Sequence record: OP870143.1
DNA from: Escherichia phage vB_Eco_F22
DNA: 64,000 nt
Direction: 5' to 3' (one strand)
Below the pieces are notes generated by a model, which saw nothing but the letters and a program-made list of their open reading frames with translations, was not told the origin of the DNA and searched no databases. Shown here one piece after another: positions 33,232-47,149 of the stretch (positions are counted from its first letter, which is position 1; every line of letters begins with the position of its first letter). Both the position numbers and the translations under genes were made by a program.

Positions 33232-33999
33232 TATCGTGAAGGGTTCTGTCAGAATCCTTTGAGATAGGAACTCCTATCATAACCTTTCTTAACTTAATCT
33301 TTGCCGTATGGCACTGACGCTAGGGGTGGCCCCCCATCCGTCAGACAGACTATTTTAAGAATGGGTTATCTCAGAAAATGTAAAGCAACATTCGGGTTAA
33401 TCAATGGCCTCTCCTATAGAGGCCATTTCTGAATCTTAGGCTATATCCCAAAGGTTAATATCTTTGGGATAAGGCTTCAGATCCCTTATCAAACTAACCG
33501 CTCAATGTTGAGCATTTTAATCACATAAGCCCCTATATGGGCTGGGTTAAATGTCGGATAGCATAGCTACCTACAGCATCGAATTGTTAGGTCTTACATG
33601 CAATATAGGGTATAAAGGGAGGACTCGTCCCCTCCCTCCTATTATGACATCCTATCAATGAGTACACTTCAAGTGGTAGGCCTGCCGCTCTTGAAATTCA
33701 TCTGCAAAGCTGGAAGTGTACTCTTTGATAGTTTTCGTAAGCGATTATGCGGTTTTTTAGAAACGAACCAATAACATAAATGCAAACGATGATGTTGTTC
33801 TGATGGCAGCCTAATAAGCCAAGCGTCAGTCAGGAGTGAGTCGTCCTGATTATCAAACGACCGTGGAGTACTCCCGTCCATGTATTAGAAACGGGGGACC
33901 AATTACCAGTTGCACGAGATGGCTTGACATGTTCAAGTTTGGACTAAGTGTGACACCGCTAGATTGGAGGGCTGCTGCGGTAAGCTATAGACTCCAACC

Positions 34000-34270
34000 G
34001 GAGGTTCGAATCCTTCACTGGTAACCAATTCAAAGTAGCACTGCATAGAACGCGAAAAGGTACAGCGACGTTAGCCATACGGTATTGTGAGGTTCGAGTC
34101 CTCACCTATGAGCAGTGACGACTGCAACAGTGCTACTCTGAATTGGAAGAATTAAGACGGGTCTGGTGAAGTAGATGGGGTTCGATTCCCCCAGGTGGAG
34201 TAATCCACTAGCGTGCTTGGTGCACGAATAAGACTTAATACTGGTGGTTCGATTCCATCCCCCGTTACCC
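34000..34270 (+). other. Four tRNA-like T-arm modules (GGTTCGAATCC, GGTTCGAGTCC, GGTTCGATTCC x2) that do not fold into canonical cloverleaves
   Basis: T-loop motifs spaced 88, 88 and 67 nt; module 1 is followed by ACTGGTA-A-CCA whose 7-nt complement TACCAGT lies about 107 nt upstream. Confidence 0.3.
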
Positions 34271-34461
34271 AAAGTCGCCAGGTACTTATGGCAAATGGGT
34301 AGTAACGAACTAGTCATTCGTCAAACGCCCACCTAATTACGAGTCAGCAAGAACGCCTTCATTTAAACTTAAACAAAAAAGCTTAACGCAATAATTATGT
34401 AGGGGTATGTAAGGATTGCGAAGAAGGAGCCAGTTAGAGCCTGGCATGACTCACCCATTAT

Positions 34462-34535
34462 GTCCACTTAGCTTAGACTGGGAAAGCAACCGACTAATAA
34501 TCGGAAGGTCACTGGTTCAAATCCAGTAGTGGACA
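34462..34535 (+). tRNA. tRNA gene (74 nt); anticodon loop CTAATAA, anticodon tentatively AAT; CCA not encoded
   Basis: Manual cloverleaf: acceptor GTCCACT/AGTGGAC (7 bp), D-stem GCTT/AAGC with GG in loop, 4-bp anticodon stem CCGA/TCGG, T-arm ACTGG-TTCAAAT-CCAGT. Confidence 0.5.
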
Positions 34536-34769
34536 CCTATTCAGCAGTAACATAGTCCTGATTGCATAGCACTCTAAAGACAACACTGGTAAGACAGTCC
34601 AGTGGCTGCTAATGTATTGTTATTCCCCTCGACGGGAATTTCGCTAGTGAAGGTAACACTTAAAAATCCAAAGCTACGTCTTACTACTATCGGGCTATCA
34701 ACCCACGGTCGCTTAACCCTATAGCGGTAGTAGTTTGACGGCCTGCCTCGTTGACTGCGTTAAAGTCAC

Positions 34770-34811
34770 TAAGTCCCTCGGAGCCGTCACTCTGGGGGAC
34801 TTTTTTATTTG
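34770..34811 (+). terminator. Intrinsic terminator closing the structured non-coding region
   Basis: Stem AAGTCCC.../...GGGGACTT with about 15-nt loop followed by TTTTTTATTT. Confidence 0.5.
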
Positions 34812-36301: not shown

Positions 36302-39300
36302 TTAGTTTACCAGGTTCATCCAAGGGTTCAGGTTGTGAGCACGTAGACCTTGCCCAAAGCCCCATGAGTAATCCAGCCCACCCTTAGCAGCAATGCTAAA
36401 GATGTTGTCCTGAATAGGCAGACCAACATTACCAAACATGGTAGGAGTTGGAGCCAGCATTGCCATTGCTGCATGCACCGGGTTATTACGAATCATGGAC
36501 ACTGCAACCTTAGCTGAACGAATCTTAAAGTTGTAGAACCACATCAAACCAACACTTTCCATATACCCACGGAAGCGACCTGGTAAACGGTCATAGTTAA
36601 CAAACTCTTCAGTTACACGTCCCAGTGCTTCTTCACGAGTCTTACCTTTACGCTGAGTCAATTCATCATAGATGATTGCTTTAGCGATAAAGTCAGAGTA
36701 CTCAACTGTCTTTTGGATACCCTGGAACAGAGCAGTATCCTTGGTGATAAGTGCATAACGTCCAGCAGTACGTACAGACTTAGGTAACTTATCTGCCAGC
36801 TTTTCCATATATTCGTGAAGTTTGCCTTCAGTAATCAGAATGTCATCACGACCGATACCAGCATCTGCAATTGAAGAGAACTCACCAGCTTCCAACAGAG
36901 GCCAGATGCTCATACGCTTATGGCTATCAGTAATGGACTGAATCTCAGCCTTAAGTTTACGAATCTGGTTCGGGTTAGTAGCTGCACGTAATTCTGCTTC
37001 TGCATCTACCTGACGCAGACGAGATTTCAGGTACTGGTTAATCTCAGCAGTTTTCTGTGGAATGCTTTTAGCAATGTTCTTAACCGGTACACCACGGGCA
37101 ACCATCTGGTAAAGGTTAGCCAAGAAGTTAACAGCAGGTACGACTACTGACTTAACTACAATCAGAGTCTTGGCTTCTTTAACTAAGTTTTGAACCAGGT
37201 TCTCACCACCCATTGTGTACTTATAAGCACGGTTGCCAAATACACCCAGCATAGCTTTCTTGAAGGTATCCAATGTTTCCGGGGACCAACGAGAATTACC
37301 AGACCAGGCATCACCTACAGAAGCTGCACGATAACCAAGTGCATCATTCAGCATGTCACGACGCACCCACAGTTCACCCTCACCAAACAGACTTTCTGCT
37401 TTCTGACGTGTTTCACTGTTCATTAGCTTAAGAGCATCAGCAGTTACTGGGTCCAGTTTAGAACCAAGAAGGTTAACGTACTGGGATTTATTAGAGGCAG
37501 ACATCTTAATGTCGTTCTCATACATGCTATGCAGGTTCTCAATCAACATATTGTTGAAACGCTGAGCCTTAGCTTCTTCCACCTGACGACCACGCCATAC
37601 ACCAATTGCACGGGCAAGGTGATTCTCGCCTTCAATGTGCTTCAGCATGTTAGGGTCAATGGATTGCTCATAGGCAACCACATTACCTTTGTCATCATAT
37701 ACAGGCAGAAGTGGTTCATTACCACGTTCACCACGAGCCAGTGCTTTAGTGATACGGTCTACGGAAGGCTTGTCAGTAATACGACCAGCTACCATCGAAC
37801 CCATCGTAAAGCCCGTACCGATGTCTACACCACCAGCAGTATTACGAACGTTTTGTAGGATACCCTGTGAGAAAGGAGCCTGTGCCTGTACCGGTGCGAA
37901 GTAGTAGCTGCGTGCTGGACCACGGTTAGCAGAGCTACCTTGATAAGTACCCAGACGTACATAAGATTTCTCAATCAAATCTCCAAACTGGCTATCTTCA
38001 GCAACAATCAGATTAACACCCTGTTTAGTCTCACTAGGGATATGCCCTTTGTACTGGTTCAAGGTTGCACGCATATCAGACTTGGCTTTAGCCATTTCAT
38101 CTTTACGCTGACCAACCAGGTAAGAAGTAGCAAAGTCCATTCCATCAACTTCTGTCTGAGCCAGAGAAGATAACATCTCACGGTCGGACTTGTTCATTGC
38201 TTCCAGTGCATACAGGGTAATCAGTTTATCCAGTTGAGCTACATCTACAGTAGAACGAGCAGCCTGACGTTCACCAAGCATACGAGAGATTGCAGTAGCA
38301 TTACGCAGCAGGTTATTACCGACTGTACCGTTAATCATGAACTGAGCCAGTTGCTTAGATTTACGACTAATAAGAGGCCAGTTACGACCAGCTTGTTTCT
38401 GCAAATCTGCTTCCAGCTTATTCACTTCACGGTCAACAATCTTCTGGTCAGATAGTAGGTCACGGATTTCAGCCAGAGACATAGTGTCACGCAGAACAGC
38501 TAAGTCAGTTTTACCCATGCCAGTGTGCATTGCTTTCCACTCATCGTTAGTCAGCTTACGGCTGAACTTAGATGCGATAGTGGTAGGCAGGTGTTCACGG
38601 AATTGCTGACGGTCTGCTTGTACCTGTGCACGAACTGCTTTAATCAAATCGTATACAGAAGCATTACTCTTAGTACGACCAGTTAAGTCATTAACCAGGT
38701 CATGGAAGGGTTGCCATACCTTACCCTGGTTCATTGCAGCCATAACACCTTCAGCTACAATTGCACCATTCTTCTCAGTAGCAATAGCAGCCACCAATTG
38801 TGCAGCATGGGCAGCACCTTTAACCAATGGATTCTTAGTATTAGCTGCAACTTCGCGAGCACTTTCTAAAGCACGAGTAGACAGTGCATCAATAGAATCC
38901 ACCAGATACTGGTTAGCACGATCAATAGCATTACCACTAGGAGTAGCAACGGAATCATAGAATGACTGTGCATTGAGGCTAGTCTGCATGATTGTCTGAG
39001 CCAGTGCATCCATACCTTCCTGTACGTTGGTAGCTTTAGTGTCACCTGCTACACGGGCATTCAAGCTAGACATTGCAGCAGTACCAATGTTAGTCAGCAT
39101 TGCATCAATGGTATTACCGGATTTCTTATCTGCTTTCATAACAGGAATGTTAGCCAGTACGTTACGTACCTCTTCACTTACCATTGCCAGACCAACAAAG
39201 GTAGGCAGTAAGGAAGAACGACCCTGTGCATCAAACTCGATATTGTTAGCACCCATGATGGTATCGAACTTCTGCTGTGCATAGTAACGGTCAGCAGGGT

Positions 39301-42300
39301 TGGTACTATCCGGGTCAGCCATGAATGCTTCAACGGTCAGATTCTTAGTAACGTGTGCATAGTATTCCTGTGCACGAGATAGAGCAGCCGGACTAATAGC
39401 AGCCTCAGTAGCCAAAGCAGCAACGATATTAGTGAACAGGCGTTGTTCCTGCATATTCATAGTGAAACCATGAGCCTGAACATCACGGGTTACTTTAGTA
39501 GCATTCACTACTGCATCAGAGAACTTACCTTTACGAATTACTTGTTGCACTGGTTCTGAACCAATGTAGTTAGTAATCAGCTTATCAAAGGTCTGCCCCA
39601 ATTCTTCCAGACGGGTATTGTCGCCATACGCCTTGTTATGGAACAAGGTAGTGTCCTTGGATACAGCAGCCGTAGGAGCCTGCCCACGCATAACTACGGA
39701 AGAGTTAAACAGTAAGCCAGAGAACATATCATCTGCATTAGCAGGAGCTTTCTTACGACCGAATACCAGACGCTTGATTGCTTCATACACAGACTGAACC
39801 ATAGTCTTCAGTGCAGTAGTCTTCTTCTGCTTACTAATTAGTTCACGGTTGGTTAAGCCCCAAGCCATGTATTCGTTCAGTGCAGCAGCTTTAGCCATTG
39901 CCGGTTCAATGAAGCCATTAGACAAGTGACCGTTAATGGTATTGAGTGCATCAGCATATGCTTCACGTACTGCCGGGGTTTCATCCTTAACATCCAGAGT
40001 ACGGAACTGGTTCATCAGGTCTTCAATATTCTGAACTGCTTCATTAGGAGTACCCTCATAATGAGCCAGTACAGATTCAAAAGTAGAAGCATGTACCAAT
40101 TCATGAACCAGAGTCTCTAAGGAAGGGGTAACTAAGTAGATGGTCTTATCATCAAAGTTAGTCCAGCCATATGCATTACCAGCTTCGGCAGCTTCAATAT
40201 CTTCCGGTGCTGGGCGAGTAATGTTCTTCTCAATAGCATAAGCATCCAGCTGAGCAGGAGTACCGTAAACAACCTTGTAGTCTTTAGCAGCAAGGGATTT
40301 CTGTACTTCTTTCAATACCGCTTGCTGTTCAGGAGACATCTCTTTAGCCAGCTTAGTGATAGCAGTATTAGACAGCAGACGTACACCAGACTTCAGTACA
40401 CGACCAACCTGTTCCATTGCTGGTACTTCTTTAACAGGTGTTTCTTCAGCAGGTACTTCTTTCACTGGTTCTGCTTTAGCAGCACGTACTGCATCACGGC
40501 GCTTATTTAATTCGGCATCAAACAGTTCGTTTAGCTTAGCTACTTGCTGGTCTACAGTCAGACCTTCCAGAGAGATTTTACCGTTGTTCACATAAGGAGC
40601 ACCTACAGCAGCCATCTGGTCAACAGTGGTCTGTACCTGGTTCATTACTTTGTGGCGAATATCTACACCTAAAGCAATGTTACGCAGATTACGTTCAATG
40701 AGGTTAACACCGGATTTCTCAATCATATCAATCTTATACTGCCTGTCTCCCTCAACACGACTGATATGGGAAAGCTGTTCAAAATCTAAAGCGGAACGAG
40801 CAATGTCATCAATTGTCTTATCTGACAACTTATTAAAGTCTACGTTCTTCATGAACTTAGAGAAGGAGTCATACACGTTCTTAATAGGATTGCCCTGCCA
40901 AGAAGTATAAACAGCCTCATTAGCTTTACGACTTGCATCAGTGATGTCATTGATACCAATGTTCATACCATCAAAGATTTTCAGGGTATTCTTCGGAGCA
41001 CCTTTCATAGTAGAAAGGGTCTGCATCATCATGCCATCACCAGTACCAATGGTCATAAATGGAATACCTGCAACACCTGCTTGTGAAGGAGCATAGATGC
41101 TCATTGGCACACGCATACGGTCGTCTAAGTTGGTAGCCAGTACTTGGTTAGCAACATCAGTATTCTCACTGCCAGCAATGTAAAAAGTCTGTGAACCAGT
41201 CTCAATCATTGGAGCCAGTGGAGACAGGGATTTCTGAATTTCATTCAGCTCTTCCTGTGTTAAGAAATCGCCCTTCTTCCAGGTTGGGTCTTTTTCTTTT
41301 TCTGCCAGTTTAGCCTGTACTGCTTGTTGGAACATATCCTGCAATACTAAAGACTGAATTTGAGTAGCCTTCTGCAAGTTCTCAGTGGAGTGCATCAGAC
41401 CTTCACCAACGGTGAACCGGATACTTTGTCTCATTGGTTCAACGAAGAAGTGCAACATGTTCTCTTGTAGGTTCTTAAGAGCATCACCAGATACAGTAAA
41501 CTCCTGGGGATCTAACTCACCAGTCAGAGCACCATCTACTTCCTTAATAAATAACTTACCTTTACGCTTAGCTGGAATCTTACCAGTCAGTGCTTCCATA
41601 GAAGTAAGGAAGGTATCCAGCATAGCCTGAGCATCTGCCTCAGACGCAGCCTCCTTACCAAACAATGCCATAGCTGGGGAAATGCTAGGGTCAGTAGCAC
41701 GTGCTTGTAGAACGTCACTGAGGCGTTCGTAGATGGCGTCAGTAATTGCACTAACCATCTTGCCAGCAATACCACGAGCACCAGAACCATAGATGGTAAT
41801 GGTCAGGGGGTTTTTAGCGATGCCACGTTTCAGGTCCAGAGTACCGTCTTCATTCAGGTTAAAGTCTTTAATGAACAGGTCCATTAGCTTCTGGAGATGA
41901 TCCATCTGGCTCATAACAGGAACGTTGTTACGGTAAGCACTACGTAATTCATTTAGATAGAATTGCAAACTATTGGTAGATGCTTCATACAGGTCAACAT
42001 TATCGTCGATAGAGCAATGTTCGTTCATCGTTTTACCAGCACGACCAAAGAACAAACCACCCTTGGCAGTATTCTTAATCCAATTTGGAGTGAACTTACC
42101 TCCAGTCATTAATACCATTGCGTTGATTGGGCCGTTGGTTACACCATCGGCTTCAACGTACAGAGGAGTATTAAAATTAGCACGGTTATCACTGTTCAGG
42201 TAACGGGCATATTCCATCAGAGCCATGAGAGCCACGAAGGATTTGTTATCACCCAAAGAGGTCTTCAGGATATCTACTGCATCTGTCGGTAAGTGCCCAG

Positions 42301-45300
42301 ACTTATCAAACTCAACCATCATATCAACAGCAGGTTTCAATTTGCCTTCCAGAGCTTTAGTCAACTCTTCAGACATAGCTTCACGGGACATTTTATGTAC
42401 CTTGATGCCTAATGCCTGAGCCAGTCCTAACTGGAAGTCAGAGAACGCTTGGCTATTTTCATTACTCAGGTCAATAGTAGAGAAGGTTGGCAGAATTGCT
42501 TCACGAACCAGCTTACTGGATTGTGGGTTGTTCTTACCAAGCATCTGCATACGACCTACTCGGGTCATGTTATAGCCATAGTGAATGGGGGTATCCAAAC
42601 CATTCTCTTGTTCTTTTAGATGATTAATTAAACCGAACAGAGAATCATATGCCATAGATACTGATAAGTTCTTACCTTCCAGTGATTTAGCATTATTTTT
42701 ATTCAGCAAATCAGGATTAAGAGTACCAGCACCCATTAGTTCCAGAATGCTGTCTCGACCCAATGCTTCATAGAAGTTAACCATCGGCATGTGTACACGG
42801 AACTCAGTAGCCTGTTCAGCTTTCAGTGCAGCTTTCTGTTCGGGGGTATTCTTAACAGCAGGATTACGTAACTGAGTTTGGGCCACGGAAGGAATGTCGT
42901 CACCAAAGTACATTTTCTCTTCCGGATTTACCAACACAGCTTCTTCAATTGCTGTAGGGAAATTATTAATAGGGTCTTTATCAGCCAACTTATTAATAGT
43001 GTACAGACCAATAGTCTTATTAGAGTCCGGGTCAATCTCAGACACATCCAGCATAGTCTCTGTAACTGCACCCATCTCAATGAGGGAAGACAGAATCTCT
43101 GTAGCCATTGCCACTGGAATGCCTTTTGTATAACCCAGTGGTGCATTAGGGTTACGATTCAAACCCCAATAAGATTCAATCTTCTGAGCCAGTGAGCTAG
43201 TAGCTTCGACCAGGGTCTGGGCATTCTCAAATTCAGCCAGAATACTTTCTGGTAACAAGGATGCTTCTACTCCAGTAATGGCAGCTACGTCTTTTATGTC
43301 TTTAATGGCAGCATTCTGTGCAGCAGTCAGTCGCCATTGCAGACCAGCAAGCACGGCAGTCTCTAACAACTGGTCATTGAACTTAAAGGTATCACCATCT
43401 TTTTCAACGATATTCAGCAGTTTGCCACCTACCCAACGGTTAGCTTCAGTACCTTCTGCAAAACGTTTACCAACGTTCTTATTAGCAAGGAACTTAGCCA
43501 GTCGTTCAGACAGAGTAGTCTTCAGTGTTTCCCCAAAGTCCATCAAATCTTGGTAACGTTCTAACACATCACCCGTGAGAGCGTTATTTTCTTTTTGAGT
43601 GAATGCTTCAAAGCGAGCAGCAGAAGACAGTGCTTGCTTAATATCAGCTAAAGGAGATTCAGAACCAATGGTACGGGACTTGGGTTCTTCTGGCAGGGTA
43701 AATGCTTTCAGGAACTGGTTCGGTGTCTTTTCATTGTTATAGACAGGGAACACTGTTTCCATCTCAGAAAGAGGTTTGCCACCTACTGTATAATCTGCTT
43801 TTAGCTGAGCCAGCGATACTTCATCTTTCTCCACGTTGTTAGTGTTACGGCCAGAGGTATCTACACCAACCAGAATCTGTGCATTATTGGCTTCAACGAA
43901 AGATTGAACAGTATTGAATTGTTCAGCGGTCAGCTTTTGATTATCAAACAGTTGTAGGGACACAAACGGTTGTTCACTGCCTTTATAGAAAGTAGAGCGA
44001 ATAGAACCAGTATCCAAAGACATATCACGATAGCCATCATGCCCAAATACGTCAGACAGGCTGATATGGTCGCCATTAGAACCAACCACAGTACCATCAG
44101 CAAACAACCACGGACTCTCTCTACGGTCACCACTCTTATTAAGAGTTTCCTGTGAAATGGTATTTTCTTTCACATAAGCATCTCTTTCAGATTCAGTAGG
44201 TTGCTCAATGGTATCCTCATTAGTGAGGGTAGCATCTACTGTTTCAGGCTTAGTAGTAGAAACTTCTTCTGTTTTTGGGCTAGTCTCCTTAGTAGGAGCA
44301 GTCTTATTTTCTACCACTGGTTTAGCTTTAGGCTGTACAGTAGTAGTGTCCTCTTGCACTGGTGCAGGAGTTTCATCAACCTGATTCACTGGTTCATTAG
44401 TCTGTTGAGACTGAGTGGCATCAAGACCACCTTGACGGAACTCTTTAACTACCTGGGCAGCAGGCTTGTTCAGACGTGAATCCAACGAGGTAACTTTCAC
44501 ATGAGAAACATTAAGCTCCGGGTAAGCCGTAGCAAGTGCATTAGCAATATCAGCTACGGTTTTGGCCTCCAGTCCTACTTGCTGTGCAAACTTAACAGAC
44601 TTGGTATCGTAAGGATTAACACCGAGGCCAGTACGACTACGTACCCATTCACGGGAAGGCGAGAGAGCCTGATAATGAACAGACTTATTCTTATCCGCAT
44701 TCCCCGAAATCAGATGCTCATTCAACGCTCCGACCTTATTCTGCATGTGCTGGGCGAACTTCATAAAGTCGCTCAGATAAGCGGAGGCCAAATCGAAGTT
44801 ACCAGAGTTATACGCAGAACGAATGCGTTTCGCATGTTGCAACGCAGAGTACTGTCCTTCATTAGAACGAGACTCGTCGGTTTTAATCTGTTTACTAACA
44901 ATGTCTTGAGGACGTAAGCCTAGTTCTTCTGCTTTAGCGTCGAACTCTCGTGCACCCTGTAACAAGGCAGCAGCAGATTGCAGGGCAGCACGTTGACGAT
45001 TCCCCAGTGTAATCTTACCTTCGCTTGCGTGCTTCAGAACCATGTTCACTGAATCTGCATCCAGTACTTCTGGAGATACATCAGCAGCCATAGCAATGTT
45101 GTTTGCTTGGGCTTGATTAGCTTCTTCAGTAGCTTTCAGCTTACCTGCTTCAGCCTGTTCCTGAATCATAGAATGGATGGCACGGAATGCACGAAGTACT
45201 TTAGGGGTATTCTGTACGTTAGCCATCAGACCAGAGAACTGGTCTACGATTGCAGCAGCAGGGGAACCCTGTTCCAGATTAGCCAGAGCACCCGGGTCAC

Positions 45301-47149
45301 GGTTAATGAAGCTATCCATGGACATGATGTTGTCATACATCTGGATTGCAGCTTCCATTTGAACGTTAGGGTCTTCGGCAGTATTAACCAGGTCAGCCAT
45401 CTTCTGAATAGCTTCTACACGGTTAGTGGAACCAGAAACAGCTTCACGGATTACTGGGTTAGCTTGTTCCAACTCTACCGGGTCGAACTTCATTGCCTGA
45501 GTTAAGTCAGCAGCATACTGGGTAGCAGCAGCTTTCTCTTCCGGAGAAATATCCATTGCATCTACTGCTTCCTGTACAGTTGCTTGTGCTTGTTCTGCCT
45601 GAGCAGCAGCTTCCTGTGCAGCAGCATTAACCGTAGCATCAGCTACAGGGGATGCTTGTTCATTACGCTTGGCAACTTCTTCACCACGTTGAACCAGAAT
45701 GTTAGTAAGAGGAGATGCAGCTTTTGCTAGTGTTTTACCAACCAGAGAAGCACCAGCCAGGGTAGTACGAAGAGTAGGGCCAGCAGCAGCACCGGCAGCT
45801 TTAACAGTTGCACCAGGGACTTGAGCAACTCCAGCACTACCGAAGCCATAAAGTGCACCAAGACCTGCTTGCTCACCAACCCCTTTGAGGGTGTCACGGG
45901 ATGCATCAACGTTTTCTTTGATTGCAGTATTCTGTGCGAACTGACCAAAGCCGGATTGAATACCTTCCTCTACAGTTTCACGCAGCATATTAGAACCAGC
46001 ACCTGCCAGTGAACCTACCTTAAGTGGGTTAAGTTCAAAGCGAGATACCAGTGGGCCGGTAGCAGCAGCAACTGGAGCAGTTAAGCCAGCAGCAATGATA
46101 CCTGTTTCAGATGCAGTCTGACGACGTGCTTCATCAGGAGATAAACCATCAGCAATATGCTGTTGGTAAACAGGAGACTTACTTGCCAGTTCTTGGTGGG
46201 ACATCTTCATGATTTCAGAAGCAGTCTGTTGGTATGCACCACCAGCTTCCATACCACCGATTGCAATAGCAGGTGCAGCAACACGACCAGCAGACAGTGC
46301 AACCTGTGCAGGACGTGAACCTAACCCAGCAGCTAAGGTAATACCCTTAACAGCTTTATCACCACCTACCATTACTTTACCGAGTGCAGATACACCACGA
46401 ATAAGTGGACCACCGGTAAAGAGGGAACCAACACCTTCACTCAGTCCGTCAGAGGCAGCCATACCATTATCAAGTGTATTAGCAACAGAATCGAAAGCAT
46501 CACGACCAATACGAGACAAGGAGGCAACCAAATCGTTCTCCCCATTTTTGATGTCTTGTTCATAAAGTTTCTGATTCTTTTGAGCAGAAATCTGGTTCTG
46601 ATTCTGAACAACCTTACGGGTAGCATTCAGTGCATCAGACTGTAGATTGTGTACGCCTTCATTCAACCAATCCATCCCGGAAGCAATGGTTGCCCCGGCA
46701 TTATCATTGACCAAACCTGTGCCAAGAGCAGCAATGCCCCCAAGGGTATTAGCAACACCAAGACCAACACCAGAAAGAGTATCGCCAAATGCTTCTGCGT
46801 TAGTACGTTGTTTAGATAAGTCCTGACGTACAACATCCGCAGCATTAGCTCGGCTATTAAGAATTTGTAGACCTTGCTCATTACCGTATTTATTAATGAT
46901 TTCTAATGGGGAGGCTTGAGTGAAATCTGCCTGAAGTGAACCTGGTTCGAATGCACCGATTCCAAGATTACCTACACGTCCGGTCTGGAGATTGTAAGCA
47001 TTCTCTGGGGTTAATTGGAAAGGGATTTGCCCTTGTGCAGCTTGCTTCTGAGAGGTTGCAGTAGAGACATCGACTCGCTTAGCATTAGTGATGCTGTCTG
47101 CGAAACCTGCCAGACGGTCAAATGTTGACATAGCATGTTTCCTGTTCAA
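36302..47149 (-). CDS. Giant virion RNA polymerase (N4 gp50-like vRNAP), 3615 aa
   Basis: Single uninterrupted 10.8-kb ORF; central T7-like palm motifs LYVEADGVTNGPINAM (A), KNPLTITIYGSGARG (B), KIFDGMNIG (C); first gene of the leftward block. Confidence 0.8.
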   Translation of the reverse strand: MNRKHAMSTFDRLAGFADSITNAKRVDVSTATSQKQAAQGQIPFQLTPENAYNLQTGRVGNLGIGAFEPGSLQADFTQASPLEIINKYGNEQGLQILNSRANAADVVRQDLSKQRTNAEAFGDTLSGVGLGVANTLGGIAALGTGLVNDNAGATIASGMDWLNEGVHNLQSDALNATRKVVQNQNQISAQKNQKLYEQDIKNGENDLVASLSRIGRDAFDSVANTLDNGMAASDGLSEGVGSLFTGGPLIRGVSALGKVMVGGDKAVKGITLAAGLGSRPAQVALSAGRVAAPAIAIGGMEAGGAYQQTASEIMKMSHQELASKSPVYQQHIADGLSPDEARRQTASETGIIAAGLTAPVAAATGPLVSRFELNPLKVGSLAGAGSNMLRETVEEGIQSGFGQFAQNTAIKENVDASRDTLKGVGEQAGLGALYGFGSAGVAQVPGATVKAAGAAAGPTLRTTLAGASLVGKTLAKAASPLTNILVQRGEEVAKRNEQASPVADATVNAAAQEAAAQAEQAQATVQEAVDAMDISPEEKAAATQYAADLTQAMKFDPVELEQANPVIREAVSGSTNRVEAIQKMADLVNTAEDPNVQMEAAIQMYDNIMSMDSFINRDPGALANLEQGSPAAAIVDQFSGLMANVQNTPKVLRAFRAIHSMIQEQAEAGKLKATEEANQAQANNIAMAADVSPEVLDADSVNMVLKHASEGKITLGNRQRAALQSAAALLQGAREFDAKAEELGLRPQDIVSKQIKTDESRSNEGQYSALQHAKRIRSAYNSGNFDLASAYLSDFMKFAQHMQNKVGALNEHLISGNADKNKSVHYQALSPSREWVRSRTGLGVNPYDTKSVKFAQQVGLEAKTVADIANALATAYPELNVSHVKVTSLDSRLNKPAAQVVKEFRQGGLDATQSQQTNEPVNQVDETPAPVQEDTTTVQPKAKPVVENKTAPTKETSPKTEEVSTTKPETVDATLTNEDTIEQPTESERDAYVKENTISQETLNKSGDRRESPWLFADGTVVGSNGDHISLSDVFGHDGYRDMSLDTGSIRSTFYKGSEQPFVSLQLFDNQKLTAEQFNTVQSFVEANNAQILVGVDTSGRNTNNVEKDEVSLAQLKADYTVGGKPLSEMETVFPVYNNEKTPNQFLKAFTLPEEPKSRTIGSESPLADIKQALSSAARFEAFTQKENNALTGDVLERYQDLMDFGETLKTTLSERLAKFLANKNVGKRFAEGTEANRWVGGKLLNIVEKDGDTFKFNDQLLETAVLAGLQWRLTAAQNAAIKDIKDVAAITGVEASLLPESILAEFENAQTLVEATSSLAQKIESYWGLNRNPNAPLGYTKGIPVAMATEILSSLIEMGAVTETMLDVSEIDPDSNKTIGLYTINKLADKDPINNFPTAIEEAVLVNPEEKMYFGDDIPSVAQTQLRNPAVKNTPEQKAALKAEQATEFRVHMPMVNFYEALGRDSILELMGAGTLNPDLLNKNNAKSLEGKNLSVSMAYDSLFGLINHLKEQENGLDTPIHYGYNMTRVGRMQMLGKNNPQSSKLVREAILPTFSTIDLSNENSQAFSDFQLGLAQALGIKVHKMSREAMSEELTKALEGKLKPAVDMMVEFDKSGHLPTDAVDILKTSLGDNKSFVALMALMEYARYLNSDNRANFNTPLYVEADGVTNGPINAMVLMTGGKFTPNWIKNTAKGGLFFGRAGKTMNEHCSIDDNVDLYEASTNSLQFYLNELRSAYRNNVPVMSQMDHLQKLMDLFIKDFNLNEDGTLDLKRGIAKNPLTITIYGSGARGIAGKMVSAITDAIYERLSDVLQARATDPSISPAMALFGKEAASEADAQAMLDTFLTSMEALTGKIPAKRKGKLFIKEVDGALTGELDPQEFTVSGDALKNLQENMLHFFVEPMRQSIRFTVGEGLMHSTENLQKATQIQSLVLQDMFQQAVQAKLAEKEKDPTWKKGDFLTQEELNEIQKSLSPLAPMIETGSQTFYIAGSENTDVANQVLATNLDDRMRVPMSIYAPSQAGVAGIPFMTIGTGDGMMMQTLSTMKGAPKNTLKIFDGMNIGINDITDASRKANEAVYTSWQGNPIKNVYDSFSKFMKNVDFNKLSDKTIDDIARSALDFEQLSHISRVEGDRQYKIDMIEKSGVNLIERNLRNIALGVDIRHKVMNQVQTTVDQMAAVGAPYVNNGKISLEGLTVDQQVAKLNELFDAELNKRRDAVRAAKAEPVKEVPAEETPVKEVPAMEQVGRVLKSGVRLLSNTAITKLAKEMSPEQQAVLKEVQKSLAAKDYKVVYGTPAQLDAYAIEKNITRPAPEDIEAAEAGNAYGWTNFDDKTIYLVTPSLETLVHELVHASTFESVLAHYEGTPNEAVQNIEDLMNQFRTLDVKDETPAVREAYADALNTINGHLSNGFIEPAMAKAAALNEYMAWGLTNRELISKQKKTTALKTMVQSVYEAIKRLVFGRKKAPANADDMFSGLLFNSSVVMRGQAPTAAVSKDTTLFHNKAYGDNTRLEELGQTFDKLITNYIGSEPVQQVIRKGKFSDAVVNATKVTRDVQAHGFTMNMQEQRLFTNIVAALATEAAISPAALSRAQEYYAHVTKNLTVEAFMADPDSTNPADRYYAQQKFDTIMGANNIEFDAQGRSSLLPTFVGLAMVSEEVRNVLANIPVMKADKKSGNTIDAMLTNIGTAAMSSLNARVAGDTKATNVQEGMDALAQTIMQTSLNAQSFYDSVATPSGNAIDRANQYLVDSIDALSTRALESAREVAANTKNPLVKGAAHAAQLVAAIATEKNGAIVAEGVMAAMNQGKVWQPFHDLVNDLTGRTKSNASVYDLIKAVRAQVQADRQQFREHLPTTIASKFSRKLTNDEWKAMHTGMGKTDLAVLRDTMSLAEIRDLLSDQKIVDREVNKLEADLQKQAGRNWPLISRKSKQLAQFMINGTVGNNLLRNATAISRMLGERQAARSTVDVAQLDKLITLYALEAMNKSDREMLSSLAQTEVDGMDFATSYLVGQRKDEMAKAKSDMRATLNQYKGHIPSETKQGVNLIVAEDSQFGDLIEKSYVRLGTYQGSSANRGPARSYYFAPVQAQAPFSQGILQNVRNTAGGVDIGTGFTMGSMVAGRITDKPSVDRITKALARGERGNEPLLPVYDDKGNVVAYEQSIDPNMLKHIEGENHLARAIGVWRGRQVEEAKAQRFNNMLIENLHSMYENDIKMSASNKSQYVNLLGSKLDPVTADALKLMNSETRQKAESLFGEGELWVRRDMLNDALGYRAASVGDAWSGNSRWSPETLDTFKKAMLGVFGNRAYKYTMGGENLVQNLVKEAKTLIVVKSVVVPAVNFLANLYQMVARGVPVKNIAKSIPQKTAEINQYLKSRLRQVDAEAELRAATNPNQIRKLKAEIQSITDSHKRMSIWPLLEAGEFSSIADAGIGRDDILITEGKLHEYMEKLADKLPKSVRTAGRYALITKDTALFQGIQKTVEYSDFIAKAIIYDELTQRKGKTREEALGRVTEEFVNYDRLPGRFRGYMESVGLMWFYNFKIRSAKVAVSMIRNNPVHAAMAMLAPTPTMFGNVGLPIQDNIFSIAAKGGLDYSWGFGQGLRAHNLNPWMNLVN

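Follow-up and report, generated by a model that had tools for sequence, protein, structure and literature searches.

The gap between the gp47-like and gp48-like genes of Escherichia phage vB_Eco_F22 was analyzed within a 64,000-nucleotide (nt) stretch of its genome (record OP870143.1), referred to here as the window. Judged by comparison with related loci, positions 33904-34270 of the window very probably comprise three independently folding tRNA-mimic RNA units, designated A, B and C, rather than one nested fold. At least two of these, Units A and C, represent new structured RNA families in phage tRNA islands, as indicated by covariation. The units are variants of the known, poorly understood tRNA-like stable RNAs of phages, and the comparative support for them is unusually strong. 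According to blastn searches against the GenBank phages, the window belongs to an N4-like podophage of the genus Gamaleyavirus (Schitoviridae), whose relatives include PhAPEC5/7, EC1-UPM, Mimir124, G7C and UE-S5a.

Clustering of T-arm motifs

The window was scanned with a strict T-arm pattern, i.e., a five-position stem with at least four pairs and a G-TTCRANY-C loop. Five matches were detected in the 64 kb, all on the + strand and all within 530 nt (34000-34527), the fifth being that of a true tRNA-Ile. Since 200 first-order Markov simulations gave an expectation of 0.88 matches per window, the occurrence of five in 530 nt on a single strand is far from random. The other four pattern matches, with start-to-start spacings of 88/88/67 nt, are as follows.

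34000-34016, + strand: T-arm 1, GGAGG-TTCGAAT-CCTTC
34088-34104, + strand: T-arm 2
34176-34192, + strand: T-arm 3
34243-34259, + strand: T-arm 4, followed by CCCCGTT (34260-34266), A and CCC (34268-34270)

An earlier, sequence-only reading of this region had described four tRNA-like modules built around these T-arms, with 5' acceptor partners displaced far upstream. All of its motifs are present, at the positions it gave to within 2 nt, and its observation was largely right; the explanations that it offered in terms of a nested fold, interrupted genes or pseudo-tRNAs are not supported, as discussed below. Its suggestion of tRNA mimicry is borne out by compensatory substitutions, which maintain both acceptor and T-arm helices in modules 1, 3 and 4 and, in module 2, the T-arm.

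Unit A

Module 1 corresponds to Unit A, the elements of which are listed below.

33904-34027, + strand: Unit A, a 124-nt tRNA mimic without an anticodon arm (comparative structure)
33904-33910, + strand: acceptor 5' strand TACCAGT, which pairs with ACTGGTA
33912-15/33948-51, + strand: arm 2, GCAC/GUGU, with a hairpin at 33921-39 (predicted fold)
33944-34000, + strand: nearly invariant core (conservation)
33964-69/33992-97, + strand: 6-bp arm TTGGAG/CTCCAA with a 22-nt loop, within the core
34017-34027, + strand: acceptor 3' strand ACTGGTA (34017-34023), A (34024) and CCA (34025-34027), directly after T-arm 1

The fold thus comprises a 7-bp acceptor helix, an extended arm at the D-arm position, a 6-bp arm at the anticodon-arm position, the T-arm and a terminal A-CCA. 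The displaced acceptor pairing proposed for module 1 (33904-33910 with 34017-34023) was upheld by its fixed spacing and by covariation in relatives: the 5' strand lies exactly 113 nt before the 3' strand in all 16 N4-like loci, and an exact 7-nt complement within 130 nt upstream has a chance probability of only ∼0.007, which places the pairing above chance. The helix reads TACCAGT/ACTGGTA in the window, TATCAGT/ACTGATA in UE-S5a and ECBP1, and TACTGGT/ACCAGTA in KP8 and Kpn16-P2, while Bp4 and two metagenome copies carry G.U intermediates. In an alignment of 11 sequences, 99.7% of the cells were paired and five pairs showed double-sided changes (three in the acceptor, one in the hairpin and one in the T stem, where GGAGG/CCTTC becomes GGGGG/CCCTC); this covariation score was reached by none of 500 shuffles.

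The distribution of variable positions is equally distinctive. Among 17 distinct copies, only one of the 55 core positions (33944-34000 minus two loop bases) varies, versus 22 of the 69 positions outside the core. The "extra" nucleotides that the sequence-only reading had noted inside the acceptor helix are therefore the most constrained part of the unit, which is the opposite of what would be expected of an insertion or a decaying tRNA. Helices and loops that vary around a nearly fixed core form the pattern expected of a structural handle combined with a sequence-specific cargo.

In terms of tRNA features, Unit A possesses the 7-bp acceptor, a T stem of 5 bp that closes a TTCRANY loop of 7 nt, as well as the discriminator followed by CCA. 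It contains neither a D arm nor a 5-bp anticodon stem with a 7-nt loop, and it measures 124 nt versus the 70-95 nt of a tRNA. The earlier statement that no D or anticodon arm is recognizable here was confirmed: no match to the Rfam tRNA model (RF00005) was obtained in 33895-34280, even at E<=10, and ARAGORN detected the tRNA-Ile only.

A host origin of Unit A was considered and rejected, as E. coli genomes match only the part of the query that covers the neighboring tag-coding domain (see below). A metagenome scan for further diversity of the unit returned mostly near-identical copies, together with a few 18-mer matches in unrelated contexts that were taken for chance. The core loop GCUGCUGCGGUAAGC (33970-33986) resembles the 530-loop sequence of 16S rRNA, GCAGCCGCGGUAAUAC, a likeness that may be coincidental.

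Unit C

Modules 3 and 4 together form a single unit.

34156-34270, + strand: Unit C, ∼115 nt with two T-arms (comparative structure)
34156-61/34261-66, + strand: acceptor-like helix GACGGG/CCCGTT, strands 104 nt apart (covariation)
34177-80/34188-91, + strand: 4-bp stem GGGG/CCCC of T-arm 3, at the D-arm position
34195-34208, + strand: GNRA-capped hairpin
34212-34226, + strand: hairpin with an invariant UUGG loop
34267-34270, + strand: tail A-CC-C (A-CC-Y among relatives), after T-arm 4 (34243-59) and the acceptor 3' strand

The acceptor-like helix appears as GGTGGG/CCCACT in UE-S5a and St11Ph5 and as GGCAAG/CTTGCC in KP8. Across 12 sequences, including one from a T4-like phage, 98% of the cells were paired and 14 of the 25 pairs underwent compensatory change; none of 500 shuffles reached any of the measures, and slid controls were 45-62% paired. 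The unit shows the acceptor/T-arm features of a tRNA in part, namely a 6-bp helix and A-CC, and its UUGG loop may serve as a D-loop-like partner for a T-loop.

The homologue of Unit C in the T4-like Gapriverviruses (VR5, TH15 and others) is a tRNA-gene-sized cassette located between tRNA-Met and tRNA-Arg. The T4 genes rnaC and rnaD were considered as homologues of the unit and rejected: the T4-like copy of Unit C lies between tRNA-Met and tRNA-Arg, and rnaD and rnaC are situated after tRNA-Arg.

Unit B

Module 2 is organized differently, as a cargo enclosed by a long stem.

34030-34142, + strand: Unit B, T-arm cargo in a conserved closing stem (comparative structure)
34030-43/34128-42, + strand: closing stem of 14-15 bp, conserved and covarying
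Within the stem, + strand: cloverleaf-like cargo with inner helix CATAG/CTATG, T-arm GTGAGG-TTCGAGT-CCTCAC (34087-34105) and side hairpin GCAGT-GACG-ACTGC

Covarying versions of the stem include AGTAGCACTG/CAGTGCTACT, AGTAGCATTG/CAATGCTACT and GGTAGTGCT/AGTACTACC; the window carries TCAAAGTAGCACTG / CAGTGCTACTCTGAA, UE-S5a the second of these versions and the Kaypoctaviruses the third. The T stem also covaries, from TGAGG/CCTCA to TAAGG/CCTTA. At least five unrelated cargos are found inside the stem across the relatives, the T-arm cargo being limited to the window, Bas96, PD205 and IME11.

Cassette behavior and lack of model matches

The modules come and go independently among the relatives. 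Between the upstream element and Unit A, some phages carry additional units, such as a tRNA-Cys-like gene and a 66-nt armless tRNA-like RNA termed Unit X (TCCGGTG ... TCTGG-TTCGAGT-CCAGA-CGCCGGA-ACCA). In ZQ2, Unit A and the upstream element are gone, and the Unit B stem and Unit C are kept. The gp47-gp48 gap of phage N4 itself (NC_008720 32100-33640), which is unannotated in the record, contains a copy of Unit X ending in ACCA, a stem-closed T-arm cassette and, according to ARAGORN, tRNA-Asn, Ser, Thr and Pro, with no tag domain. Between the window and KP8, a member of another genus, blastn matches in the locus are confined to the RNA blocks, with identities of 91% for Unit A, 90.5% for the upstream domain and 71% for Unit C.

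Rfam searches of the whole gap and of 33895-34280, at gathering thresholds and at E<=10, returned the tRNA-Ile, a sub-threshold tmRNA_permuted match on the tag and noise only. ARAGORN likewise identified no transfer-messenger RNA (tmRNA) and no tRNA beyond tRNA-Ile in the gap.

Putative tRNA-scaffolded small RNAs

In both Unit A and Unit C, a tRNA-type acceptor helix stands beside a canonical T-arm and is followed by 3' A-CCA (A) or A-CC (C), while other conserved elements take the place of the D and anticodon arms. The minihelix covaries, and the body embedded in it is constrained in sequence (Unit A) or in architecture (Unit C). An acceptor/T-arm minihelix with a 3' (A)CCA is the minimal substrate of RNase P and is also recognized for 3' trimming and by the CCA-adding enzyme. 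We consider it reasonably probable that the units are tRNA-scaffolded small RNAs, which would be excised by tRNA-processing enzymes and remain stable. The minihelix would serve as the handle for the host tRNA-maturation enzymes: the 5' side would be cut by RNase P, at U33904 and near G34156, and the 3' ends would be completed by trimming and by the CCA-adding enzyme; the long stem of Unit B could possibly be a target of RNase III. Released in this way from a polycistronic transcript, each unit would build up as a stable small RNA. Its function would reside in the non-tRNA body, i.e., in Unit A the 55-nt core and in Unit C the double T-loop/UUGG-loop body. Candidate partners of the mature RNAs are tRNA-binding enzymes, the ribosome and tRNA-targeting defence nucleases, and any specific downstream role is put forward only tentatively. 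Should the scaffold interpretation prove correct, the cassettes would provide a natural parallel to engineered tRNA scaffolds, and also a reservoir of candidate decoys, mimicking tRNA, in the conflict between phage and host.

Several observations weigh against this interpretation. The minimum free energy of Unit A is no better than that of shuffled sequence (z = -0.21), and its arms 2 and 3 are invariant, so that their pairing is a prediction. Unit B offers neither a free acceptor end nor CCA. Unit C is a less ideal substrate for RNase P as well as for the CCA-adding enzyme, because its acceptor-like helix is only 6 bp long and begins with G.U, a 1-nt spacer (an unpaired C) follows the T stem, and the final A of CCA is missing. 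The division into scaffold and cargo is itself a function that we infer.

A tmRNA-like tag-coding domain upstream of Unit A

The element that precedes Unit A carries the features of the mRNA-like part of a tmRNA, including pseudoknots (PK).

33731-33897, + strand: tmRNA-like mRNA domain, beginning with GTTTTCG at 33731 (sub-threshold RF04321 match and comparison)
Upstream of the tag frame in 33731-33897, + strand: putative PK1
33782-33811, + strand: tag frame GCA..GCC, encoding ANDDVVLMAA, followed by UAAUAA (33812-17)
33828-33861, + strand: PK2, covarying
33863-33897, + strand: PK3, covarying; its 3' strand holds AACGGGG

In a permissive Rfam scan, the domain matched tmRNA_permuted (RF04321) with 38.8 bits (E = 7e-6), below the gathering score of 47. 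The match is driven by GCA AAC GAU GAU GUU GUU CUG AUG GCA GCC UAA UAA. The frame has no start codon, and an in-frame stop occurs three codons upstream; it thus consists of a tag frame with a resume codon, flanked by pseudoknots. In 48 distinct copies the frame always comprises ten codons, and synonymous Ala codons occur. These copies represent nine tag variants, among them ANDDVVLMAA, ANDDLMMVAA, ANDDLMLMAA, ANDEQFLAVA, ANDDQFLAVA and ANDNAYLMVA, and a tenth, ANEEAYLMVA, was found in Mimir124; the variants end in AA or VA. At least nine fully complementary versions of PK2 stem 1 were observed and four of stem 2 (GTCG/CGAC, CCGA/TCGG, CCAG/CTGG and CCAA/TTGG), and the stop-codon hairpin appears, by eye, to covary. 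Because the frame is conserved and the pseudoknots covary, 33731-33897 is predicted from sequence comparison to work like the mRNA-like domain of a tmRNA. It conserves a degradation-tag frame, yet no canonical tRNA-like domain accompanies it.

The domain is widespread. Copies with 70-95% conservation occur in a large number of unrelated enterobacterial phages, namely P1, D6, RCS47, the T1-like phages Akira and Sf11, the Vi1-like phages phiMAM1 and KpS110, Salmonella phage 7-11 and a Vibrio phage, and further copies in dozens of IMG/VR contigs. Of 5426 complete E. coli genomes, 657 contain it as well, for the most part on P1-like plasmids, and it is never annotated as RNA in them. ARAGORN, Rfam at gathering thresholds and PGAP all miss it, and ARAGORN made no tmRNA call in the window or in the sequences L001-L006. 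Our literature search, which concerned N4-like and P1 phages that might encode a tmRNA or an element resembling one, yielded nothing relevant. An exhaustive tmRNA survey of 2014, covering the RefSeq viruses of November 2012, listed phage tmRNAs in mycobacteriophages and Bacillus phage G only (PMC4131195); taken together, the 2014 and 2025 surveys report phage tmRNAs either from these sources only or as 79 unspecified sequences.

An ACCA follows PK3 in most N4-like phages and is absent in UE-S5a, Bp4, P1, phiMAM1 and the T1-like members; that it represents a pseudoknotted acceptor end resembling that of turnip yellow mosaic virus has a low probability. The sequence GGGGGACCA at 33901 may be the 3' end of the domain. 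At the 5' boundary, a consensus sigma-70-like promoter, recognized by eye, lies just upstream of PK1 in Akira and in locus L060, which suggests that transcripts there start at PK1. Candidates for a distal 5' acceptor strand upstream of PK1, which would result in the standard tmRNA topology, were rejected: TATCAGT of UE-S5a belongs to a long hairpin and is not conserved in KP8, and the candidate in Akira is situated inside the promoter spacer. T4 rnaD was examined as a degenerate tag domain, following the lead of a shared AGAAACGGnGnACCAA, and was dismissed when an nhmmer profile gave no match to the T4 region.

Alternative interpretations

The position of the tag domain raises the question of whether these phages run or subvert trans-translation with an RNA of their own. 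In such a multi-piece tmRNA, the part of the aminoacylated acceptor domain would fall to Unit A or to another unit ending in ACCA, which would deliver the ANDDVVLMAA frame to stalled ribosomes. The mimics without an anticodon arm would then be the acceptor modules of a rearranged phage trans-translation system, in which the tag domain comes first. We regard both propositions as unlikely, although a number of findings speak for them. Unit A starts 6 nt downstream of the tag domain, with which it forms a contiguous block that is ∼89% identical between two genera. In the presence matrix, all 12 N4-like loci with Unit A contain the domain (Mimir124 was read directly). Minimal operons in L117, Akira and L109 consist of the tag domain, one unrelated ACCA-ending tRNA-like unit of 119-126 nt and a terminator. 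Moreover, the conserved frame, with its synonymous Ala codons, implies translation, and translation would require some tRNA-like entry domain.

On the other hand, the G3.U70 alanine pair occurs in none of the units, i.e., Unit A (C3-G70 or U3-A70), Unit C, Unit X and those of L117, Akira and L109. In Unit A, the two acceptor strands are both located downstream of the tag, after PK3, an order that corresponds to neither the standard nor the permuted tmRNA and in which the two parts would be cut apart by RNase P. Pairing of the tag domain with Unit A was no better than in shuffled sequences (180 of 200 did as well). Unit A is lacking from other carriers of the domain, namely IME11, VLCpiP4a, TR2, P1 and many contigs that have no T-arm in the vicinity, and neither ARAGORN nor Rfam calls a tmRNA. 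If the proposal were nevertheless true, P1, T1-like, Vi1-like and N4-like phages would carry a new form of tmRNA that existing finders have missed, as would, through their prophages, ∼12% of the complete E. coli genomes.

Quite improbable, too, is the view that the units have no function of their own and are simply punctuation, namely RNase P/RNase III cleavage signals that define the ends of neighboring RNAs. RNase P cuts mascRNA from MALAT1 in this manner, and plant mitochondria use t-elements. In the present locus the signals would define, for instance, where the tag domain ends on its 3' side and where tRNA-Ile begins and ends: Unit A begins 6 nt past PK3, and the order PK3, ACCA, tRNA-like unit recurs in most N4-like phages. 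A cleavage signal, however, needs the minihelix only, which leaves the nearly invariant 55-nt core of Unit A unexplained, as well as the five covarying helices and the invariant UUGG loop of Unit C. In addition, Unit C persists without the tag domain in ZQ2 and in T4-like phages.

A further explanation, which we consider very improbable, holds that the modules are decaying or interrupted tRNA genes, i.e., pseudo-tRNAs produced by recombination in a tRNA cluster and free of selection. The 88/88/67-nt spacing roughly matches that of tandem tRNA genes, the region is mosaic, and the corresponding gap of relatives bears the annotations tRNA-OTHER, tRNA-Pseudo and tRNA-Cys. Yet every helix is maintained by compensatory substitutions, the non-tRNA core of Unit A is its most conserved part, and Unit C is common to N4-like and T4-like phages. 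The interrupted-gene reading in particular found no support, as no anticodon arm can be recovered and neither tRNA nor intron families of Rfam give a match at E<=10.

The sequence-only reading had also proposed that AACGGGG (33890-33896) pairs with CCCCGTT (34260-34266) some 370 nt downstream, thereby enclosing all the modules in one large fold. Both motifs are indeed present, and the exact 7-nt complement recurs in Mimir124 and PhAPEC7; the long-range pairing between them is not conserved, and we consider such a fold extremely improbable. A complement of this kind within 450 nt has a chance probability of ∼0.03 per module. The 3' strand becomes CCCCACT, CCTTGCC or CCCTGCC in relatives without a matching upstream change, EC1-UPM and ZQ2 retain CCCCGTT without AACGGGG, and the long-range partner is lost in UE-S5a, St11Ph5, KP8, VLCpiP4a and the phages with a different upstream pseudoknot. 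Both strands have covarying local partners instead: CCCGTT pairs with GACGGG (34156-34161) in Unit C, and AACGGGG is the 3' strand of an H-type pseudoknot whose other strand is CTCCCG (33871-76), the versions of this pairing being CTCCCG/CGGGGG, TCCCCG/CGGGGA and CCCCCG/CGGGGG.

Finally, the idea that the region encodes small proteins merits practically no credence: ORFs (open reading frames) of 48-71 codons overlap it and PHANOTATE-style hypothetical proteins are called there in Mimir124 and Bas96, but the longest open frames change strand and frame among relatives, none matches a PHROG family, and the substitutions are pairwise-compensatory in RNA helices.

In Mimir124 (L142) and Bas96 (L146), eight to ten short "hypothetical protein" coding sequences, on both strands, cover the region homologous to 33650-34800. 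As their frame and strand are not conserved and no PHROG match exists, they are probably over-calls. For annotation in general, it is of consequence that gene callers place spurious proteins or "tRNA-OTHER" over these RNAs.

The surrounding transcription unit

The units, the tag domain and the true tRNA-Ile share a strand, and the three-unit region has the same terminator as the tRNA. Together they constitute a non-coding RNA operon of ∼1.15 kb, at about 33650-34810 on the + strand, within a 1.5-kb gap that contains no conserved ORFs. Its remaining features are as follows.

33652-33731, + strand: long hairpin with a stem of ∼19 bp, abutting the tmRNA-like domain at the first G of GTTTTCG (PK1)
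34462-34537, + strand: canonical tRNA-Ile, anticodon AAT (ARAGORN; Rfam tRNA, 65 bits)
34771-34810, + strand: strong intrinsic terminator, 13-bp stem (34771-34802) and T run, ending the operon

The stem of the long hairpin is kept through compensatory changes in Mimir124 and UE-S5a, and its apical part is variable. The corresponding place, or the one after PK3, is taken in other phages by another long, bulged helix (CACAACAGGTAAGRGCA...TGCYCTTWCCGTTGTG), on which a T-arm sometimes forms the cap; P1 carries three copies. Just upstream of the long hairpin and tag domain, St11Ph5 (L144 610-681), PD205, Bp4 and ECBP1 possess a 72-nt tRNA-like gene that is not found in the window. It is classified by tRNAscan as Ala(CGC) or pseudo-tRNA, and its acceptor, GTCGGGG/CCCTGAC, has G4.U69 and not G3.U70.

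The AAT anticodon (A34) of the tRNA-Ile is unusual for bacteria and their phages, and the relatives label this gene variously as tRNA-Ile, tRNA-Xle or tRNA-Val. The motif TAGGGGTATGTAAGG is located at 34400-34414, ∼50 nt upstream of the tRNA. It occurs once in the window (versus 0.01 expected), is conserved in N4, in all of the Gamaleyaviruses fetched and in the T1-like Akira and L112, and could function as a promoter or processing element or constitute an RNA motif.

The interval between tRNA-Ile and the terminator (34538-34770) is also non-coding. It contains short conserved blocks, e.g., CGGGCTATCAACCC near 34691, in common with relatives and with Serratia phage phiMAM1 (L005, near 1985); this sharing of sequence suggests that further structured RNA modules are present. 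The terminator is annotated as such in PhAPEC5/PhAPEC7 as well. Farther downstream, an ORF of 3615 codons on the - strand (36302-47149) is the counterpart of the virion RNA polymerase annotated in the Gamaleyavirus relatives.

Comparison with known systems

An acceptor/T-arm handle for RNase P, 3' processing and RNA stabilization is known from mascRNA/MALAT1, the t-elements of plant mitochondria and engineered tRNA scaffolds. These systems are eukaryotic, organellar or artificial, whereas the processing of the units in the window is presumed. The tRNA scaffold approach for recombinant RNA is mentioned in PMC3753655.

The tRNA-like domain of tmRNA shares with Unit A the acceptor helix, the T-arm, the CCA end and the lack of an anticodon arm, and in the window a pseudoknotted tag-coding domain adjoins the unit. 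A phage RNA consisting of the tRNA-like domain only is known from mycobacteriophage DS6A (PMC4131195, PMC11915505). Unit A differs in the lack of G3.U70, in the arm that occupies the anticodon-arm position and in the order of its strands, and it is recognized as tmRNA by neither ARAGORN nor Rfam.

The bacterial Y RNA YrlA resembles Unit B in combining a long closing stem with a cloverleaf-like module that contains a T-arm. In M. smegmatis, YrlA undergoes cleavage by RNase P and addition of CCA (PMC4201824). Its long stem, in contrast, is situated at the anticodon-stem position, while that of Unit B extends the acceptor-like helix, and no match to RF02553 (YrlA) was obtained at E<=10 in the gap or in 33895-34280.

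Pseudomonas phage PAK_P3 produces an abundant late small RNA, sRNA2, from between two phage tRNA genes, which includes an 11-nt stretch identical to tRNA T-loops (PMC4933390). The phage and the sequence are unrelated to those studied here, and neither a structure nor an acceptor helix has been described for sRNA2.

The units are comparable in type to the species 1 and 2 RNAs of phage T4 (rnaC and rnaD; band C/D), the genes of which are likewise found among the phage's tRNA genes and on their strand. No sequence homology to rnaC or rnaD was detected, and a blastn search with 33900-34300 matched T4-like phages at a distinct locus only. The T4 rnaC product is 139 nt long, with a T-arm (CCGGG-TTCGAAT-CCCGG) followed by a 7-nt strand at its end and no anticodon arm. 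The units fit this species-1 type in their location in a phage tRNA cluster, on the tRNA strand, in their length of >100 nt, in a T-arm near the 3' end and in the lack of an anticodon arm. In contrast to the T4 RNAs, Units A and C have cleaner acceptor helices, of 7 and 6 bp, and encoded ACCA or ACC. The function of the T4 species 1 RNA is still unknown after 50 years (PMC3014915, PMC4933390), and the families represented by Units A and C tie in with this long-standing question.

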